Source of the DNA: Gammaproteobacteria bacterium
Lineage (GTDB): Bacteria > Pseudomonadota > Gammaproteobacteria > GCA-001735895
NCBI GenBank assembly: GCA_041688005.1
Contig: JBDNJA010000113.1
Location: 537 to 64,536 of the forward strand
DNA: 64,000 nucleotides
Reading direction: 5' to 3'
The notes beneath the pieces were generated by a model. It searched no databases and had not been told where the DNA came from. It saw only the letters and a program-made list of their open reading frames with translations. The first letter of the stretch is position 1. Every line of letters starts with the position of its first letter. Made by a program: the position numbers and the translations under genes. Shown here piece by piece: positions 479-8,843 of this stretch.

Positions 479-1100
479 GGCTCTTCAGGAAAATTTGTGG
501 GTGAAAATAGCCCTATATTTAGGAACCAAAGTTAGTTTATCCGCAATTAAAGGGTAGTGCATCCCGCCCCGATTCTGAGAAGATGGAAGTATCGAGCTTT
601 CATCAAACAGGAAAAGAAACAGGATGCAGATCAAGACTATCCTAAATCGCGTACAAAAATTCAAATCATTTATTTACGGCACCGTTCGTTGGGTTGAAGG
701 CACGGCAGTGCCAACCCTAGAGGTCGAGATACAACCGCGCACGAACAGCCGACCCATTTGTAGTATCTGTCGATGTCAAAGACCCGGTTACGACAAGTTA
801 CCCGAACGACGTTTCGAGTTTATCCCGATGTGGGGAAACAAACTATTTTTCGTCTATGCACCGCGCCGAGTCAACTGTCCTCGCTGTGGAATCCGCGTAG
901 AGAAAATGCCCTGGGTGACAGGCAAACATCAGCTCACAGAAGCCTATGTTTGGTTTTTGGCCGGTTGGGCAAAACGACTCAGTTGGAAAGAAGTAGCCGA
1001 AGCGTTTCGAACCAGTTGGGATCATGTCTTCTGTTCAGTGGAGCGAGCCGTCAGTTGGGGCCGAGCGCACCAAGAACAAGAAGGGGTCAAGTGTTGATAA
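479..1100 (+). mobile_element. Truncated ISL3-family insertion sequence (left end plus 5' third of the transposase gene)
   Basis: GGCTCTTCAGGAAAATTT at 479 resembles the GGCTCTTC... terminal inverted repeats of ISL3-family elements. The transposase ORF begins 145 nt inside and stops after 157 aa. I saw no right end. Confidence 0.6.
624..1097 (+). pseudogene. ISL3-family transposase, N-terminal zinc-ribbon/HTH fragment (157 aa versus about 400+ aa for intact copies)
   Basis: It has C-x2-C ... C-x2-C (CSICRC...CPRCG) and the ...FVYAPRRVNCPRCGIRVEKMPW... block typical of IS204/IS1001/IS1096/IS1165-type transposase N-termini. Confidence 0.75.
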
Positions 1101-1293: not shown

Positions 1294-2352
1294 TTAATCC
1301 GCGTATAACGCTCCAGTGCTAGTGGCTAGAAAATCATCAAGAGCTATGTCTTCTTGTTTGATAAAGCCCTGTTGGGGCAATTTGCCATCACGCACCATTT
1401 CGATGATCGCGACCACAGATGCCGAAGTCGTCCACGAAATGGCGGTTCGATGTTTGCCTGCAATTTCTATAGGCCTATAAGCTCGTACAAATTCTTTACG
1501 TGCTGGCCGAGAATCACTCATACCTTCAGCCGCGACATGGACATAAACCACATCATCATCCACCGGTGGTTTGGCATTAACCAAAATTTGTCCTGCTTCT
1601 TCGCGTCGATCCCGCATCAGTAGTTCGTGAAAAAAGAAGTTCATTAAGTCCATATGGCCGGGATAACGCATGGTTTTATAATCGATGTTGGCGACTTTTC
1701 CGTGGTAAGTGTCGCACATGGTTGCGAGCCCACCCGATGTGGTAAATGCTTCGAGTTTCATGCCGTCGATGTAAATCGTCTCTAACCATTCCATTGGTGA
1801 AACCCACTTTCGTTCACCATCTTCGATCACTTCACAGTCATTCAAGTATTCATTGACGACGCCTTCGGCTGACCAGTTAAACGAATAGCCCAATAGCCCC
1901 GTCGGGTTTTGCGGCAGTGCGCCAACGCGCATTCGACAAGATCGACATTCGCTTAGTTTGGATATCAAGCTGGCGCCGACGATACCGACAAAACCGGGGG
2001 CTAGACCGCATTGCGGTGCCATTACGCCGCGTGATGTTTTGCCTAGCTCGATAATGGCGTTGGTGGTTGCGACATCTTCGGTTAAATCGAAATAATGAAT
2101 GCCAGTATCATGGGCCAATTTGGATATTTCTATATTGAGATGAAAAGGCAGGCAGGACAGAACGGCATCTACTTTTTCGAACTCGGTGCGCATACTTTGG
2201 ACAGAACTGAGATCGACCACTTTGGTCATAAAATCAAAGTCTTCATTCGCTTCGCGCAGGTCAAAGCCAATCACCTGAAATTTGGCATCGTGCAATAGTT
2301 GAGCCGCCAGTGCGCCTACCTTGCCTAGTCCGAGTACTGCAATTTTTTCCAT
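1294..2352 (-). CDS. Saccharopine dehydrogenase-like NAD(P)-binding oxidoreductase
   Basis: N-terminal Rossmann motif IAVLGLGKVGALAAQLL. Length and overall similarity fit the saccharopine/carboxynorspermidine dehydrogenase family. I place the start at the internal ATG (MEKIAVLG), which has an AGGGG Shine-Dalgarno upstream. Confidence 0.75.
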   Translation of the reverse strand: MEKIAVLGLGKVGALAAQLLHDAKFQVIGFDLREANEDFDFMTKVVDLSSVQSMRTEFEKVDAVLSCLPFHLNIEISKLAHDTGIHYFDLTEDVATTNAIIELGKTSRGVMAPQCGLAPGFVGIVGASLISKLSECRSCRMRVGALPQNPTGLLGYSFNWSAEGVVNEYLNDCEVIEDGERKWVSPMEWLETIYIDGMKLEAFTTSGGLATMCDTYHGKVANIDYKTMRYPGHMDLMNFFFHELLMRDRREEAGQILVNAKPPVDDDVVYVHVAAEGMSDSRPARKEFVRAYRPIEIAGKHRTAISWTTSASVVAIIEMVRDGKLPQQGFIKQEDIALDDFLATSTGALYAD

Positions 2353-2439
2353 GGTTGTTCTACCCCTTTTAAATTTAGACCATCTCAATTTAGACCTTCT
2401 TTACTTAGACAATCCCAAATAAGACTTTAGAAGCGCCCG

Positions 2440-3462
2440 CTAAATCACGACCGCACGTTGTTCATCGATCCCCATCGATAGTAAAAATGGATGCTTTGCC
2501 TGCCTGTCGACAAAGTCCTGTTTGCTGCGAATGCCCTGCCAGTGTTCTGCGATCAAACATTGTGCGATAGCGCCACCCAGTGTTTGGCCTGGTCCAAGGA
2601 CGATGATGTTGTCGGGCGCAAACTCACGCAGGCTTGATCTCACCGATGCAAGAAAATCAAATGGCGTTACCACCTGGTGTCCGAGCGTGTAATCCCACAA
2701 GTCAGCTTGATTAGAGGCCTGTGGTAGCCAGACATGCCCACGACCATCGATCAGTGGTAACGTCGGCTGTCGAAATAAATTGGGTGGCAATTGCTGTTTT
2801 GCGATGGCCGTAATAGGTTGCTGTAGTGGCGAGTGGAATGCGGCGTGATTATGCAGCCGCATCGGGAACCGATCCTGTATGGGTTCGAGTGCTTGCTCGC
2901 AAGTCTTGAGCGCTTTCTCCGTACCCGCGAATACAATCATGCCGCCGAGCTGAATCGATAAATACAAATCGGGAATACGGTCGGTCAATGCCATTAGTTC
3001 ATCACGCTTGTGAGGAATCTCGATCCAGTTTTCATCGACATAGGGGTATAACAATTGACCGCCAATGAGTGCGTCCTGCATCAGCGTGCCCATGGTATTC
3101 ACCACCTCGAACCCCTGGTTAGTGTCGAGTGCACCAGCGCAGGCGAGCGCGATATACCAGCCCATCGAATTACCAGCCACACCAACGATGTCAAATTTAT
3201 CGCGATTGATCGATAAGAAGTCTGCATAGGCACAGGCAAAGATCAGCGAAGAGGCATTATCGCCTCGGGTTAAACGGCTCGTCGAATAGGTGGCAGCGCT
3301 ATCCAGTTCAGTTAGAGATGGTTGTCCCAATGCCTCGCGACGCGCATCAAATTCAGACAGCATCGGCTGTTGTCCTTGATGATTTTTTGCAAGATATCCC
3401 AACTCTTGACGGTTATAGGTGCCGCGTCCTGGGCAGATAACCAATGCTGATTGTCGTTTCAT
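2440..3462 (-). CDS. FabD-like acyltransferase (malonyl-CoA:ACP transacylase superfamily), atypical
   Basis: Nucleophile elbow GNSMGW in place of GHSxG, and a HAAFHSPL motif as in AT domains. The start lies 3 nt after the upstream E1 stop. Confidence 0.6.
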   Translation of the reverse strand: MKRQSALVICPGRGTYNRQELGYLAKNHQGQQPMLSEFDARREALGQPSLTELDSAATYSTSRLTRGDNASSLIFACAYADFLSINRDKFDIVGVAGNSMGWYIALACAGALDTNQGFEVVNTMGTLMQDALIGGQLLYPYVDENWIEIPHKRDELMALTDRIPDLYLSIQLGGMIVFAGTEKALKTCEQALEPIQDRFPMRLHNHAAFHSPLQQPITAIAKQQLPPNLFRQPTLPLIDGRGHVWLPQASNQADLWDYTLGHQVVTPFDFLASVRSSLREFAPDNIIVLGPGQTLGGAIAQCLIAEHWQGIRSKQDFVDRQAKHPFLLSMGIDEQRAVVI

Positions 3463-3465
3463 CGG

Positions 3466-5697
3466 TTACTCCTCAATCTGAGATTTCACTAATGCTAGAG
3501 CCGCATTAACAATGTCATCCCGACTCGGCATGGTTGCACCATAAGCAGGGCCGGTTGCGATAAAGGAATCCTTTGCGGCTAGGCGAGTAGGAGTATGGTT
3601 CGACTTTTCGGCGAATAATGTCATGAGAGCTTCGCTTTGTGATCCTGTGCTACGGCATTCATCCACAATCAAAACTTGTTTGCAGTCTGCAGTGGCTTCG
3701 ATGATGGCGGTTTCTGGCAAGGGGGCAATCCAGCGACTATCGATTATTCGGCAAGCAATGCCATGCGTTTCGCGGAGTATTTTTTCGGCTTGAGCTGACA
3801 GGTAAAAACCATTCGCATAACTGACAATGGCTAAATCTGTGTCATCACCTTTACAGTCGCCATGAACGCCGACTGTATCAAAAGTCATGTTGGGTTGACT
3901 GCCAACGGCTGGGTATTGGTGAGTCCACAAACCATCGTCGGGCTGATGCAGATCTCGTGTCATATACAAAGCGATCGGTTCTACAAAAACCACCACACGT
4001 TGTTCTTCCCGAGCGAGGCGTATCGATTCTCGTAGCATTAATACCGCGTCACGACCATTCGATGGGCAGGCGATGACTATGCCTGGAATATCGCGCAATA
4101 CGGCCAGAGAATTGTCATTGTGAAAATGACCACCAAAGCCACGTTGATATCCCAGACCGGCGACACGGATCACCATCGGATTGCAGAATTGACCATTGGA
4201 AAAGAAGGGCAGAGTCGCAGCCTCGCCCCGTAACTGGTCTTCGGCATTGTGTAAATAAGCCAAAAATTGAATCTCCGCAATCGGTACAAATCCGTTATGC
4301 GCCATGCCAATCGCTAATCCCATGATTGATTGCTCATCAAGTAATGTGTCGCTGACCCGGCTAACCCCGAAGCGTTTTTGTAAGTGTTGGGTGACGCCAT
4401 AGACACCACCTTTGCGGCCCACATCTTCACCGGCTAGCACGACTTCTTTATGATCCATCATTAAGTCAGTCAACGCGAAGTTGATCATTTTTGCCATATG
4501 TTGTGGTTTGTCGAGTGCACGAGTGTCTGCCGACCCGAAAGTCAGATGTCTTTGTTGTTTGGATGCGCGCACGACTGGTTCGCAGCTACGCTTAGGCGGC
4601 ACAATACTTGCCATCACTTGCTGGGCCGTTTGCAGGCGAGGTAATTTGATGACCTGTTCGGCGGCACGCTCAACACGGTCACCGATACGGTTATATATCG
4701 AGATAACTTCGATAGCACTTAAACCGGCGGACTCGATTAAAGTCTTCGCGCTATACAGCAAAGGGTCGTGAGCTTCGGTGTTTTCAATGTGCTCATTTGA
4801 TAAATAACTGGTTTGTACATCTGGCCCGGCGTGACCATATAAACGCACGCAGGACATATGCAAAAAAGCAGGTTGGCGAGTTCGCCTAACCCAATCGGCT
4901 ACTTTTTTGGTGGTGGCGTAAGTGTCTACAATATCCAGCCCATTACATTTGAAATACTGAAGGCCGGGGCGGTTCGACATAGTAGCCTCGACCCAGCCGA
5001 CGGGCGTTTTGACCGATATGCCAATGCCATTGTCTTCGCAGACGAAAACCAGTGGCAATGGAATACCTTGAAACGCATTCCAACCAGTTGTATTGAATGC
5101 GGCCTGCGACGAAGCATGATTAAGCGACGCATCACCAAAGCTGCAAAGCACGACTGCATCGTCAGGCAAAGCTTGATGTTCGGGTTTAATCCGTTTTGCC
5201 ATGCCCACCGAATAAGCGGTGCCGACTGCCTTGGGTAAATGAGAGGCGATGGTGCTGGTCTGCGGTGGAATGGCGAGAGACTTCGAGCCGAGCACCTTGT
5301 GTCGCCCACCTGAAATAGGGTCGAACATGGCAGTCGAAAAGCTAAGCAGCATATCCCAAAGTGGGGTTTGGCCTGGTACTTGTGCTGCACGAGCAATCTG
5401 AAATGCCGCATCGCGATAATGCAGAAAAGCCATATCATCGGGCCGAAAGGCGCTCGCAATCGCAGCACTGCCTTCATGGCCAGAAGAGCCAATGGTATAG
5501 AAACCCTGGCCTTGTGCCTGCATTTTACGTGACTTGCGATCAAGCTGACGACTCAAGGCTTGCGAGTAAAAGATGCTAACCAACTGCTCGTTACTCAGCC
5601 CCGCTTCGGTCAGTGATAAATCACTAATATTGAAGTCAAGATCCTGCTCGGCGACGCGACGCAGGAAGTTGTCATGAACAATATCGGCTCGATCCAT
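3466..5697 (-). CDS. Thiamine-diphosphate-dependent 2-oxoacid dehydrogenase E1 component, fused alpha-beta (743 aa)
   Basis: The N-terminal half resembles E1-alpha (TPP-binding). The C-terminal half resembles E1-beta/transketolase-like (…VVLAGEDVGRKGGVYGVT…, …AEIQFLAYLHNA…). Confidence 0.85.
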   Translation of the reverse strand: MDRADIVHDNFLRRVAEQDLDFNISDLSLTEAGLSNEQLVSIFYSQALSRQLDRKSRKMQAQGQGFYTIGSSGHEGSAAIASAFRPDDMAFLHYRDAAFQIARAAQVPGQTPLWDMLLSFSTAMFDPISGGRHKVLGSKSLAIPPQTSTIASHLPKAVGTAYSVGMAKRIKPEHQALPDDAVVLCSFGDASLNHASSQAAFNTTGWNAFQGIPLPLVFVCEDNGIGISVKTPVGWVEATMSNRPGLQYFKCNGLDIVDTYATTKKVADWVRRTRQPAFLHMSCVRLYGHAGPDVQTSYLSNEHIENTEAHDPLLYSAKTLIESAGLSAIEVISIYNRIGDRVERAAEQVIKLPRLQTAQQVMASIVPPKRSCEPVVRASKQQRHLTFGSADTRALDKPQHMAKMINFALTDLMMDHKEVVLAGEDVGRKGGVYGVTQHLQKRFGVSRVSDTLLDEQSIMGLAIGMAHNGFVPIAEIQFLAYLHNAEDQLRGEAATLPFFSNGQFCNPMVIRVAGLGYQRGFGGHFHNDNSLAVLRDIPGIVIACPSNGRDAVLMLRESIRLAREEQRVVVFVEPIALYMTRDLHQPDDGLWTHQYPAVGSQPNMTFDTVGVHGDCKGDDTDLAIVSYANGFYLSAQAEKILRETHGIACRIIDSRWIAPLPETAIIEATADCKQVLIVDECRSTGSQSEALMTLFAEKSNHTPTRLAAKDSFIATGPAYGATMPSRDDIVNAALALVKSQIEE

Positions 5698-5749
5698 ACT
5701 TGTGATTACTACCAGTTGAGCTGAGAAATTAGGGCAGGGAAAGAAGCGC

Positions 5750-6964
5750 TCAGAAAAAAGCCTGCAGGCCAGTTTGCGCGCGCCCTAGAATCAAGGCATG
5801 CACGTCGTGAGTTCCTTCATAGGTATTCACCGTTTCAAGATTTTGCATATGACGCATGACATGAAAATCTTCATGGATACCATTACCACCATGCATATCG
5901 CGCGCGTGGCGGGCAATTTCAAGCGCTTTGCCGCAATTATTACGTTTCATCATCGATATCATTTCTGGCGCCATCTGGCCGTCATCGAACAGCCGACCCA
6001 GACGAAGTGAACCCTGCATACCCAGCGTAATGTCGGTTTGCATATCGGCCAGTTTTTTCTGGAAGAGTTGAGTTTGTGCCAGCGGTCGGCCGAATTGTTT
6101 GCGGTCGAGACCATACTGTCTAGCGGCGAACCAGCAACTTTCAGCCGCGCCCAGAACGCCCCAGGCAATGCCATAGCGCGCCCTATTAAGACAACTAAAT
6201 GGGCCCTTAAGGCCTTCGGTATCAGGTAGCAAAGCGTCTTCACCAACTTCAACATTACTCATCACGATCTCGCCAGTGATTGATGCGCGCAAGCTCAGCT
6301 TGCCCTCGATCTTCGGTGTCGATAACCCAGTCATACCCCTGTCGAGAATAAACCCGCGAATCTTATTATCATGTGCTTTGGACTTTGCCCAGACCACAAA
6401 TACATCTGCGATAGGGCTATTCGAAATCCACATCTTAGAACCATTCAATCGATAGCCATTGCTCGTTTTTTCCGCTCTGGTGCTCATGCTGGCCGGGTCT
6501 GAGCCAGAGTCGGGTTCAGTTAAACCGAAGCAGCCAATGAATTCACCACTGGCGAGTTTTGGTAGATATTTTTGTTTTTGCTGTTCCGAGCCAAACGCCT
6601 GGATGGGGTACATCACCAGCGACGATTGCACCGACATCATCGAGCGATACCCTGAATCGACCCGTTCAATTTCACGGGCAATCAGGCCGTAAGAAACATA
6701 ATTTGCACCAATGCCGCCATACGCCTCCGGCACAGTGACACCAAGCAAGCCCATCTCGCCCATTTCCTTAAAAATCCCAACATCGGTGGTTTCGTTTCGA
6801 TAGGCTTCGACCACGCGCGGTAGTAATTTGTCCTGTGCAAATTCGCGGGTGGCATCTCGCAGCATGCGCTCATCATCGTTAAGTTGCTGATCAATCAGAA
6901 AAGGGTCGTCCCAGACGAAGTCCGCTGTGTGCTTGTTTGATTTTTGATTCATTTCTTGATTCAT
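5750..6964 (-). CDS. gcdH: Glutaryl-CoA dehydrogenase (acyl-CoA dehydrogenase family)
   Basis: The N-terminus [22 protein letters not shown]... and the C-terminus ...[23 protein letters not shown] are characteristic of GcdH. Confidence 0.85.
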
Positions 6965-7041
6965 GTTTTGATCCTTCGATGTAGCTCGCTTAATTAGGCT
7001 GTGCGGAATAACTATCTATTTTTACTGTGTCTTTGTCTATC

Positions 7042-7059
7042 ATAAGAGCAAAAACTTAT
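7042..7059. promoter_or_regulatory. Interrupted dyad ATAAG-N8-CTTAT in the gcdH/lysR divergent region (candidate LysR-type site)
   Basis: The dyad is seen directly in the sequence. A regulatory function is only inferred from its position. Confidence 0.3.
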
Positions 7060-7176
7060 TCCGAAACCTCATAATATTGTGTTCGCCATCATTTGATATA
7101 TAGCTCTAAACCCTAGTATATTGAGTCGAAAGTGGATTAATATTGATATTCTCACATATTTATATGCATAAACGGA

Positions 7177-8076
7177 ATGATATCCTCTAGAAGATTCTTG
7201 CCATCGACCAGTCAGTTGCTCGCATTCGAAGCGGTTGCGCGACATCAAAGCGTTACAGTGGCAGCGCAGGAGCTCTCATTAACGCAGAGTGCTGTTAGTC
7301 GGCAATTGCAGAAACTAGAAGCACAGATCGATATTGCGTTGTTTGATCGTAAAAAAAAGCGCGTGAAACTAACCGCCGCAGGCGAAATCTATTTCGAAGA
7401 AATTCAGGTCGCATTAAAACAAATTGCCAATGTCAGCCTCCGGCTTAAGTCTAATCCGGAGGGTGGTAGTCTCAATCTTGCCATCTTGCCAACCTTCGGC
7501 ACACGTTGGCTCGCCCCTCGATTGAATGATTTCCTGACGAAAAATTCTGGAGTGACCATTAATCTCAGCACTCGACTGGTTCCTTTCAATTTTGATAGTG
7601 AGGCAATGGATGCCGCAATATATTTTGGCTCACCCTCGTTATGGCCAGAGTGTGAATATCAAAAGATTATGGATGAAGCGATATTGCCTGCTTGTGCCCC
7701 TGCTTTATTGACATCGGTGAAAGTCACAACCCCGTCCGATTTGCTCAAATTTCCACTGTTGCACCTGCAAACACGGCCAAGCGCCTGGCAACAATGGATG
7801 AAGGCTCACCAGGTAGAATCGTCCAATCTGACAGGTATGTCTTTCGATCAATTCGCGATGATGAGCAATGCGGCTACGCAAGGTGTGGGTGTCGCACTTT
7901 TGCCCCAGTTTTTAATTGAATCAGAACTACGCGATGGCCAGTTAGTATCTGCCTATGGAGATGCGGCGAGTAGTCAAGGAAGCTATTATTTGGTATGGCC
8001 GAAACAAAAATCACACTATAAGCCTTTGATTCGGTTCAGAACTTGGTTGAGGGGCCAGACTGATAATGCCGTTTGA
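7177..8076 (+). CDS. LysR-family transcriptional regulator, divergent from gcdH (GcdR-like position)
   Basis: N-terminal HTH ...LLAFEAVARHQSVTVAAQELSLTQSAVSRQLQKLE... followed by a LysR substrate-binding domain. Confidence 0.9.
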   Translation: MISSRRFLPSTSQLLAFEAVARHQSVTVAAQELSLTQSAVSRQLQKLEAQIDIALFDRKKKRVKLTAAGEIYFEEIQVALKQIANVSLRLKSNPEGGSLNLAILPTFGTRWLAPRLNDFLTKNSGVTINLSTRLVPFNFDSEAMDAAIYFGSPSLWPECEYQKIMDEAILPACAPALLTSVKVTTPSDLLKFPLLHLQTRPSAWQQWMKAHQVESSNLTGMSFDQFAMMSNAATQGVGVALLPQFLIESELRDGQLVSAYGDAASSQGSYYLVWPKQKSHYKPLIRFRTWLRGQTDNAV

Positions 8077-8372
8077 AAAGAAGCTTGGGTTAAGACTCTT
8101 CGAAAAAACTATTGGGTAACATAGATTGAGCCGATTCATTTAGCTTTTGATTTATCTTCTTCATATTGGAATTGGGACTGACATCCTTCCCTGCTTTGGT
8201 ATTGGCGACAGAGTAAAGTGAACAGCGTCAGCTCGAATGCAGATAATTTCTCGCGACTACGTCATCCTGCGGATGCCGATAAAACCCACTCCACATCGTG
8301 CTCTAAAATATGACGAGTGACACCATCAAAATCGATTGAGTCGTTCGATATTTTTTGATTGCGCGATATCCC

Positions 8373-8843
8373 TCACCTCGAAGCATTGGTCAATCTATTT
8401 AAGGGGACGGCCACAGAAGAAGATACTCGTTGTGTCGTCATTATTGGTAAAGGTAGAGCCTTTAGCGTAGATTGATGATATTCCAGCACTGGCAGGAACA
8501 GATCCTTATCCGATGGGTTACCTTCTTCTATCGACAGGTAAGTAATAAAACCGCGTCGTTCACTGCTCAAATTAATCTTATGACCATACTGTACGTCGCG
8601 AAATCCTTTGACGATAATATCGGTATGCGGCTCGAAAAGGCTGACGAGTTTTCCCGAGGAATGAACCGTCTCCTTGTGGATAACACGGCGCTCAGTTTGA
8701 TCGACAATTTTCAGCATTAAGTCCCTGTAGTGCTCCAATTTTAGCATCCACTTTTCTTTCTTCTCACCTTCACAGGCGTCTGCACGGACGCTTTGCAGTC
8801 CTCTATCCACTTGTTTTAATACTAACCGTGACAGCTTTAGCAA
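8373..8843 (-). pseudogene. IS5/IS1182-like transposase, internal fragment
   Basis: The block ...GKLVSLFEPHTDIIVKGFRDVQYGHK... matches the conserved SLFEPHT-IIRKGK...FG-K signature of this transposase group. The fragment is 156 aa and lacks the DDE C-terminal part. Confidence 0.55.

Follow-up and report, generated by a model that had tools for sequence, protein, structure and literature searches.

Breakdown of lysine, and possibly of tryptophan, via 2-aminoadipate in bacteria requires a step from 2-oxoadipate to glutaryl-CoA, and no bacterial gene assigned to this step was found in the literature that we searched. One locus in the stretch of gammaproteobacterial DNA analysed here (64,000 nucleotides, hereafter the window) raises the question of whether a single-chain 2-oxoacid dehydrogenase E1 and a FabD-fold acyltransferase (AT), encoded side by side behind gcdH, are concrete candidates for it. 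Five genes flanked by insertion sequences compose the locus: a divergent LysR-family regulator and, on the minus strand, gcdH, E1, AT and a saccharopine-dehydrogenase-like (SDH-like) gene. Rechecking the open reading frames reproduced to the base the coordinates, strands and lengths of the initial annotation, as well as the gaps of 52, 3 and 87 nt in the minus-strand series. The flanks carry an ISL3 transposase fragment at 624-1097 (plus strand; NF033550 transpos_ISL3, profile positions 2-123 of 370 only) and an ISNCY/IS5-type transposase fragment at 8373-8843 (minus strand; NF033593, profile positions 215-345 of 444 only). Since DNA homology to the closest relative, locus L074, is confined to window positions 1294-8086, at 86-91% identity, the cassette is a discrete unit. 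We lean slightly towards reading it as a LysR-controlled catabolic cassette that takes lysine carbon through glutaryl-CoA to crotonyl-CoA, in which E1 would work on a borrowed lipoyl-E2 and E3 and AT would move the glutaryl group to CoA. The cassette probably provides bacteria with the conversion of 2-oxoadipate to glutaryl-CoA.

The regulator (7177-8076, plus strand, 299 aa) contains the Pfam domains HTH_1 and LysR_substrate and belongs to a GcvA-like subfamily; its best NCBIfam model is NF008352 GcvA, with a score of 260.8 bits that is below the cutoff of 288. As first described, it is transcribed divergently from the gcdH operon, which is a trait of the Pseudomonas GcdR arrangement. Of the 85 related E1 loci that we surveyed, about 26 have a homologue (47-54% identity) that is placed divergently ahead of gcdH or E1. 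The control region between the two genes (6965-7176, no strand) includes a 62-nt segment beside the LysR start (7115-7176) that is identical to L074 at 61 of 62 positions, and the remainder of the spacer is far more diverged in the same alignment. A short A+T-rich dyad is located at 7136-7147, and promoter-like hexamers, which are consensus matches only, are found at 7093-7122 (plus strand) and 7039-7011 (minus strand).

The product of gcdH (5750-6964, minus strand, 404 aa) is a true glutaryl-CoA dehydrogenase, as it had been assigned. Its residues 13-404 match the characterised enzymes, with 634 bits to the Burkholderia protein 3gnc and 555 bits to the human protein 1sir; the score to 4w9u is 701 bits, and all three Acyl-CoA_dh domains of Pfam (N, M and C) are present. 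The gene is directly upstream of E1 in about 30 of the 85 loci, with GcdH identities of 68-94%, and is not adjacent in more than half of them. GcdH is nevertheless encoded elsewhere (E ≤ 1e-100) in 23 of the 26 E1-bearing genomes without adjacent gcdH, and it is present in all four AT-positive genomes of an even Alphaproteobacteria sample, against a background of 147 of 251 genomes. Because GcdH is common, the genome-level co-occurrence of E1 and GcdH (~95% vs 59%, with related genomes counted, so that these are not independent observations) is only a moderate enrichment.

The E1 gene (3466-5697, minus strand) encodes a ThDP-dependent enzyme for which we propose 2-oxoadipate as the substrate. 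That it is a single 743-aa alpha-beta fusion is confirmed by three Pfam domains in one open reading frame, all above cutoff: E1_dh (46-351), Transket_pyr (400-575) and Transketolase_C (618-717). Heterotetrameric alpha2beta2 E1s (T. thermophilus 1um9, human 1dtw, G. stearothermophilus 1w85) have the same order of three domains, and the cassette E1 has in common with them the ThDP motif, the activating Glu and the two active-site histidines. In an alignment of 12 diverse family members, the ThDP motif GDA...EDNG, the Glu of DTLLDE, H289 and H526 are all invariant. H289 aligns with the second His of R-I-G-H-H-S in human E1b alpha (the HHS loop), and H526, in GGHFHNDN, corresponds to the His in GGHHHSQS of T. 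thermophilus. The alpha and beta active-site histidines of E1b serve the reductive acylation of lipoamide. In contrast to the alpha2beta2 E1s of BCKDH and PDH, the cassette E1 is fused in one chain and has no adjacent E2 or E3; each of its halves reaches only 50-120 bits (phmmer) against characterised E1s, and the gene context suggests a dicarboxylic substrate.

The lineage of E1 nonetheless invites another reading. Its best solved relatives are the alpha and beta subunits of BCKDH and PDH, OGDH or DHTKD1 chains are absent among its 38 matches to solved structures, and SucA of the same genome has no match anywhere in the window. Judged by sequence, E1 is of the BCKDH/PDH alpha-beta lineage and not of the OGDH/DHTKD1 lineage, whereas it is the latter that handles dicarboxylic 2-oxoacids in known systems, which would count against 2-oxoadipate as the substrate. 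E1 may instead act on 2-oxo-6-aminohexanoate, 2-oxopimelate, or a branched-chain or aromatic 2-oxoacid, with the proximity of gcdH reflecting co-regulated amine and amino-acid catabolism instead of successive reactions. Besides the branched-chain and pyruvate E1s being nearest among solved structures, the database label (2-oxoisovalerate dehydrogenase E1), the loci in which gcdH is not adjacent, and the neighbours of the closest lineage member (L004), namely an SBP and an alpha/beta hydrolase instead, are consistent with this alternative. We consider it unlikely, however, in view of the low identity to characterised E1s and of the strong conservation within the family, in which gamma- and alphaproteobacterial members share 65-70% identity and the columns of the 12-member alignment are on average 76% identical. 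Moreover, the recurrent neighbours exactly match the enzymes before 2-oxoadipate (from lysine) and after it (GcdH), the association with gcdH persists on a eukaryote-like contig, and a BCKDH-type E2 was not found in this genome.

No E2 catalytic domain occurs on the window's contig, and E2o, E2p and E3 of this genome, used as tblastn queries, detected neither E2 nor E3 in the window, in agreement with the initial annotation. It had named dedicated E2/E3 genes beside orthologous units as evidence that would speak against its reading; such genes were not encountered, since, up to 10 kb from E1, the range in which neighbours were checked for E2/E3, an E2 homologue was absent in all 85 loci, and a single locus has a distant E3-like flavoprotein 7 kb from E1. 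The same genome encodes, outside the window, E2o, E2p and an E3 of 583 aa whose N-terminus carries a lipoyl domain. From these we infer a borrowed carrier: the single-chain E1 would decarboxylate 2-oxoadipate on ThDP and reductively glutarylate the lipoyl group of E2o, E2p or the lipoyl-bearing E3, and GcdH would convert the resulting glutaryl-CoA to crotonyl-CoA.

Borrowing of this kind has a precedent in the animal 2-oxoadipate dehydrogenase, in which, according to the account in PMC9367764, the E1a DHTKD1 borrows the E2o DLST and the E3 DLD. As far as that account describes the animal complex, neither E1 has an E2 or E3 of its own, and the reaction proposed here would be the same, namely the conversion of 2-oxoadipate to glutaryl-CoA ahead of GcdH when lysine and tryptophan are degraded. 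DHTKD1 is an OGDH-type homodimer, however, whereas the cassette E1 is an alpha-beta fusion of the BCKDH/PDH lineage and is usually accompanied by a private FabD-fold AT, which has no animal counterpart.

AT (2440-3462, minus strand, 340 aa) starts 3 nt past the E1 stop codon and is a serine acyltransferase of FabD fold, not FabD. The top Foldseek matches of its AlphaFold model (pLDDT 94.9) are MCAT/FabD structures (E ~1e-17, 17-22% identity, TM ~0.7-0.8). Residues S99, H210, N98 and M124 correspond to S92, H201, H91 and R117 of E. coli FabD (1mla), so that AT keeps the catalytic Ser-His dyad (S99, H210) in places equivalent to those of FabD, trans-AT acyltransferases or acyl hydrolases of the same fold. 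The motifs GNSMG (97-101, for GHSxG) and AFHS (208-211) had been pointed out before and are indeed invariant or nearly so in the family: R13, N98, S99 and H210 are invariant, and Met124, at the place of the malonyl-binding Arg117, nearly so. Arg13 sits in a PGRG loop and is new relative to FabD. Assignment as FabD itself was rejected on the basis of the replaced Arg117, a TIGR00128 fabD score of 52.5 bits, far under the equivalog cutoff of 260.9, and the lack of an Acyl_transf_1 match, no Pfam family being detected at E ≤ 0.001. The gene also differs from fabD in adjoining E1 rather than fatty-acid or polyketide genes. The labels that databases currently give to E1 and AT ('2-oxoisovalerate dehydrogenase E1', 'ACP S-malonyltransferase', even 'MFS transporter') are probably wrong.

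ACPs are the usual partners of the FabD fold, and alpha-proteobacterial biotin synthesis uses glutaryl-CoA from lysine or 2-oxoadipate (PMC7645780). AT could thus be imagined to load glutaryl or another dicarboxylic acyl group onto ACP for biosynthesis (BioZ-type pimeloyl-ACP/biotin, lipid or polyketide) rather than to form a catabolic CoA thioester. We regard this as very improbable: no ACP, ketosynthase or biotin gene is recurrent near the pair, the constant companion GcdH consumes glutaryl-CoA, and BioZ itself takes glutaryl-CoA as the acyl donor (PMC7645780).

In the catabolic role that we prefer, AT would use Ser99 and His210 to take glutaryl off the dihydrolipoyl thioester and pass it to CoA, or at least to clear it, and would thereby ease a glutaryl step that housekeeping E2 cores handle poorly. 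The replacement of the malonyl-binding Arg by Met124, together with the invariant Arg13, may be a clue to such a specificity. There is a parallel in the recently found need of mammals for ABHD11 to handle glutaryl-lipoyl adducts; this serine hydrolase is required to free the lipoyl arm of the 2-oxoglutarate dehydrogenase E2 from glutaryl (PMC12643935). As proposed for AT, ABHD11 is a separate serine enzyme clearing glutaryl-lipoyl, but it has an alpha/beta hydrolase fold and hydrolyses the adduct, whereas AT would transfer the acyl group to CoA. The likeness would therefore be functional only.

How closely AT depends on E1, and E1 on AT, bears on whether a lipoyl carrier is needed at all. The conserved core of the surveyed loci is the E1-AT pair, and in about 63 of the 85 AT immediately follows E1. 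In marine contigs of eukaryote-like character, a single open reading frame holds the C-terminal domain of E1 together with AT, and a GcdH homologue lies beside it in divergent orientation. In addition, three E1 positions, selected post hoc out of 315 conserved columns, track the presence of AT; among them position 114 is aromatic in 61 of 62 AT-bearing rows and in 3 of 12 AT-less rows (independent pairs 6:0). This coupling, namely the 3-nt spacing here, the adjacency, the single-frame fusion and the co-varying residues, together with the lack of any E2 homologue or lipoyl carrier recurring near the pair, agrees with the reading preferred here but would also suit a self-contained, lipoyl-independent mechanism, in which another acceptor would oxidise the E1-bound enamine to glutaryl-ThDP and Ser99 would accept the acyl group directly from ThDP and pass it to CoA, the FabD-like protein replacing E2.

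This mechanism seems improbable to us, because, of the 15 genomes in which E1 is not followed by AT, 14 lack AT altogether (E ≤ 1e-20), and six of these 14 keep gcdH beside E1, so that E1 must be able to deliver its product without AT. Retention of both histidines for lipoamide acylation in E1 also argues against it, and no candidate oxidant (ferredoxin, ETF or flavoprotein) recurs in the neighbourhoods. On the E1 tree, the absence of AT needs at least 10 changes. AT is thus an accessory and dispensable component, not an obligatory E2 substitute, and the acyl-transfer step initially proposed for it would not be an obligatory part of the pathway. A broader proposal, which we find doubtful though somewhat less so, is that the fused E1 together with the FabD-like protein makes up a 2-oxoacid-to-acyl-CoA machine of a novel type, the missing 2-oxoadipate dehydrogenase of bacteria and picoeukaryotes, in which AT would do the work of the lipoyl-E2 core, either by accepting the acyl group directly from ThDP or by acting in trans as a private E2 catalytic domain for a lipoyl arm that is borrowed. 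Our literature search returned no paper on the E1/AT family and none assigning the pair a function. If the pairing of a 2-oxoacid dehydrogenase E1 with a FabD-fold AT is as we propose, this enzyme class would include an architecture that has so far gone undescribed.

The SDH-like gene (1294-2352, minus strand; Sacchrp_dh_NADP and Sacchrp_dh_C in Pfam) offers a view of what may feed the cassette. Its reading frame is open over 1294-2388, with a likely ATG start at 2352 and an alternative TTG start at 2388. The top PDB match is 3abi (E 2.9e-16), the L-lysine 6-dehydrogenase of P. horikoshii (PMC10413350), a member of the same Pfam family and the best solved relative. In Ruegeria, an aldehyde dehydrogenase gene comes after the homologue (43% identity), and this is the lysdh-aasadh layout of the verified R. 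pomeroyi pair LysDH SPO0234 and AASADH SPO0235 (PMC4334477); the window gene, in contrast, has no aldehyde dehydrogenase beside it. The protein is probably an L-lysine 6-dehydrogenase-like amine dehydrogenase. Because of its best solved relative and the layout around the Ruegeria homologue, lysine is more likely to be oxidised directly at its epsilon-amino group than to enter the saccharopine route suggested initially.

An aldehyde dehydrogenase and an aminotransferase encoded outside the cassette would then carry the lysine-derived product to 2-oxoadipate. An ALDH7-type gene was found neither in the window nor in the 87%-complete genome (best match 31% identity). As far as can be seen, the module therefore does not suffice by itself, and the lysine-to-2-oxoadipate route is not visible in this genome. 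The initial interpretation is therefore supported in part. Its compact path from lysine to crotonyl-CoA is incomplete as seen here, its saccharopine route is the less likely one, AT is an accessory, and the E1/AT/SDH-like trio is not the conserved unit, given that SDH-like orthologues (67-94% identity) occur in only 11 of the 85 loci. Its placement of the cassette in the lysine pathway stands, together with the lack of E2/E3 nearby. All 11 loci with the SDH-like gene also have gcdH-E1-AT, and this series is elsewhere joined by genes for a LysDH-like enzyme, for aminotransferases of class I/II or III and for an aldehyde dehydrogenase. Other than gcdH and AT, the recurrent neighbours are Aldedh (14 loci), SDH-like (11), Aminotran_1_2 (9), DAO (8) and Aminotran_3 (6), and a single locus (L017) carries LysR, SDH-like, aminotransferase, gcdH, E1, AT and Aldedh together. 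The E1-AT pair itself occurs in over 600 species representatives, most of them Alphaproteobacteria from the sea and from soil.

The cassette consists of four genes on the minus strand, gcdH (5750-6964), E1 (3466-5697), the gene of the 340-aa acyltransferase (AT; 2440-3462) and the SDH-like gene (1294-2352, with an upstream TTG at 2388), separated by gaps of 52, 3 and 87 nt, together with a LysR regulator gene on the plus strand (7177-8076). These coordinates, taken from the initial annotation, match the ORF list of the window. By Pfam, the gcdH product is a three-domain acyl-CoA dehydrogenase; it scores 634 bits against Burkholderia GcdH and 555 bits against human GcdH, and at the sequence level it is a genuine GcdH. 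The alpha-beta fusion claimed for E1 is borne out by the presence of E1_dh, Transket_pyr and Transketolase_C in one chain. The SDH-like protein carries Sacchrp_dh_NADP and Sacchrp_dh_C, and the regulator is assigned to the LysR family, with GcvA as the best model at a score slightly below its cutoff, while AT has no Pfam match.

Together the five genes make up a discrete unit: similarity at the DNA level to L074, the closest relative, spans 1294-8086 of the window and stops there, and fragments of ISL3-type and ISNCY-type transposases lie on both sides. The 62 nt adjoining the LysR start are nearly identical in L074, the rest of the spacer having diverged, and this block is a likely operator and promoter. 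Scans for promoters and terminators gave counts near those expected from shuffled sequence, and they revealed no clear terminator inside the operon. Directly downstream of the cassette, a REP-like stretch (1138-1278) matches an L074 site distant from the cassette (76% over 142 nt) and is probably a dispersed repeat of the lineage.

AT scores 52.5 bits against the fabD equivalog, the cutoff of which is 260.9. Its predicted structure (pLDDT 94.9) has the FabD fold, and Foldseek matches it to FabD-fold structures with E-values of about 1e-17 at 17-22% identity. Ser99 and His210 align with the catalytic Ser92 and His201 of E. coli FabD, whereas Asn98 replaces His91 and Met124 replaces the malonyl-binding Arg117. 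Arg13 in the PGRG loop, at what is presumably the Gln11 position of FabD, does not vary among 26 family members. The retained fold and the replaced residues therefore indicate that AT is a FabD-fold enzyme, yet not FabD.

More than 600 species representatives match the E1 family, of which the best 80 were kept; conservation is good, with 65-70% identity between Gamma- and Alphaproteobacteria. In alignments, the two halves of E1 pair with the alpha and the beta subunit of E1s from branched-chain and pyruvate dehydrogenases, and not with OGDH/DHTKD1. Across 12 diverse homologues, there is no variation in the ThDP motif or in the glutamate of DTLLDE, and two histidines are likewise invariant: H289 in the alpha half, aligned with the second His in R-I-G-H-H-S of human E1b, and H526 in the beta half, within GGHFHNDN opposite GGHHHSQS. 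In E1b, this pair of histidines acts in the reductive acylation of lipoamide. Their retention speaks for an E1 that still addresses a lipoyl arm.

The source of such an arm would lie outside the cassette. The window had been described as free of E2 and E3 genes, and indeed the E2o, E2p and lipoyl-E3 of the genome, a metagenome-assembled one of 2.83 Mb and 87% completeness, have no homologue in the 64 kb. The only E2 catalytic domains of the genome are on other contigs, E2o-like beside a sucA-like gene and E2p-like beside an aceE-like gene. A 583-aa E3 with a lipoyl-domain-like N-terminus adjoins the E2p gene in the aceE/aceF region (contig C101:8489-10240, outside the window) and could, judging from this N-terminus, be a lipoyl carrier for the orphan E1. 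Dedicated E2/E3 genes beside orthologues, named in the initial annotation among the observations that would count against its reading, were looked for at 85 E1 loci over up to 10 kb on either side. No locus has an E2 homologue near E1, and at a single one a distant E3-like flavoprotein is encoded at 7 kb from it; thus this objection does not arise.

In the same survey, AT directly follows E1 in about 63 of the 85 loci, a GcdH gene with 68-94% identity lies before E1 in about 30, and a LysR gene (47-54% identity) is divergent from the unit in about 26. Eleven loci, each with gcdH-E1-AT, contain the SDH-like gene at 67-94% identity. Other recurrent families are aldehyde dehydrogenases (14 loci), class I/II aminotransferases (9), DAO-type flavoproteins (8) and class III aminotransferases (6). 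These recurrent neighbours are the enzymes expected for the conversion of lysine via 2-aminoadipate semialdehyde and 2-aminoadipate to 2-oxoadipate, and at one related locus, L017, all of them surround gcdH-E1-AT. The best solved relative of the SDH-like protein, 3ABI, is an L-lysine 6-dehydrogenase. In Ruegeria arenilitoris, a homologue of 43% identity is followed by an aldehyde dehydrogenase gene, the same layout as the lysdh-aasadh pair of R. pomeroyi, which is recorded with experimental support (PMC4334477). The window cassette itself contains neither an aldehyde dehydrogenase nor an aminotransferase gene. A class I/II aminotransferase with 50% identity to that of L017 is encoded on another contig of the genome, in which, incomplete as it is, no ALDH7-type aldehyde dehydrogenase was found (best match 31% identity), so that the steps leading from lysine to 2-oxoadipate can be traced there only in part.

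We infer the substrate of E1, its lipoyl donor, and the donor and acceptor of AT as follows. E1 would decarboxylate 2-oxoadipate and glutarylate the lipoyl arm of a housekeeping protein, borrowing it in the manner of animal DHTKD1. AT, as an add-on, would shift glutaryl from the dihydrolipoyl thioester onto CoA via an acyl-Ser99 intermediate, relieving a transfer perhaps performed poorly by E2 cores specific for succinyl or acetyl, and GcdH would then convert glutaryl-CoA to crotonyl-CoA. In mammals, glutaryl-lipoyl adducts are a real burden, and a distinct serine enzyme, ABHD11, deals with them (PMC12643935).

Genomes with E1 and without AT gave the most informative result. In 14 of the 15 genomes in which AT does not follow E1, it is absent genome-wide (E ≤ 1e-20). 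This absence, in one sixth of the E1 carriers, is newly described here; among the genomes concerned are type-strain assemblies and one complete genome, of Sulfitobacter. In six of the AT-less genomes, gcdH lies directly before E1, the genes after E1 are mutually unrelated in the AT-less set, and on the E1 tree a minimum of 10 changes is needed to account for the AT-less state. E1 genomes without any AT imply that E1 can do its job without AT. These genomes, and also the retained histidines of E1, make less likely an E2-less alternative in which AT would accept the acyl group from ThDP itself. A 359-aa ORF after the Marinobacterium E1 was considered as a diverged AT and rejected (hhalign probability 0.02).

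Further observations speak for joint action of AT and E1. In a comparison of 62 AT-bearing with 12 AT-less rows, position 114 is aromatic in 61 versus 3, Arg344 is present in 55 versus 2, and Arg341 in 42 versus 1; phylogenetically independent pairs for position 114 are 6:0. Such positions tracking AT are new. Since the columns were picked after the data had been viewed, 114, 341 and 344 are candidate, not demonstrated, parts of a surface for docking or coupling. Longer, fused relatives of AT were not found in the word-indexed collection. The exhaustive representative search with AT (137 clusters at E ≤ 1e-30) detected, on three contigs from marine metagenomes (L093:4355-9788, L094 and L095), a 595-aa protein that joins the C-terminal domain of E1 to AT in a single open frame. 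The remainder of E1 lies directly upstream in another frame, the gap of about 285 nt being intron-like, and an adjacent, divergent gene encodes a GcdH homologue with 50-68% identity. The contigs have 63-65% G+C and also contain genes for septin, metacaspase and SAP-domain proteins; the arrangement resembles a picoeukaryote version of the gcdH-E1-AT unit of bacteria. Independent confirmation of this E1-AT fusion, with gcdH beside it, is likewise added here. No function is assigned to the E1 or AT family in the literature searched (bacterial 2-oxoadipate dehydrogenase, GapMind, fitness data, Phaeobacter lysine catabolism), and public annotations of both are generic or wrong.

AT is rare in even genome samples: it occurs in 4 of 251 Alphaproteobacteria and, within the class to which the window belongs, in 1 of 300 genomes, the sole carrier being the window's own genome. 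Neither E1 nor AT is present in a same-genus representative that is 99% complete. On the unrooted E1 tree, the window sequence clusters with two close metagenomic relatives, and this group, with an Ilumatobacter bin, falls within an alphaproteobacterial clade (SH-aLRT 97), separate from a second gammaproteobacterial group. This placement and the IS remnants suggest that the cassette was acquired by transfer, without a direction on an unrooted tree; the IS-flanked, probably transferred state is also newly described here. L004 (7962-14217) holds the second-closest relative of the window E1-AT pair (89% and 87% identity), with no adjacent gcdH, LysR or SDH-like gene, a peptide-type solute-binding protein gene upstream and an alpha/beta hydrolase gene downstream. 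These different neighbours indicate that the cassette has been rearranged within the lineage of the pair.

GcdH is encoded elsewhere in 23 of the 26 E1 genomes without an adjacent gcdH, against a background of 147 of 251 in the even alphaproteobacterial sample; the enrichment is moderate, and the genomes are related to one another. The same-genus genome G152 has a lone gcdH (L091, C82:3080-5864) with 69% identity to that of the window, and the region of the window's genome syntenic with it breaks at a contig edge. In G152, this gene follows a DAO-type flavoprotein gene and adjoins leuCDB.
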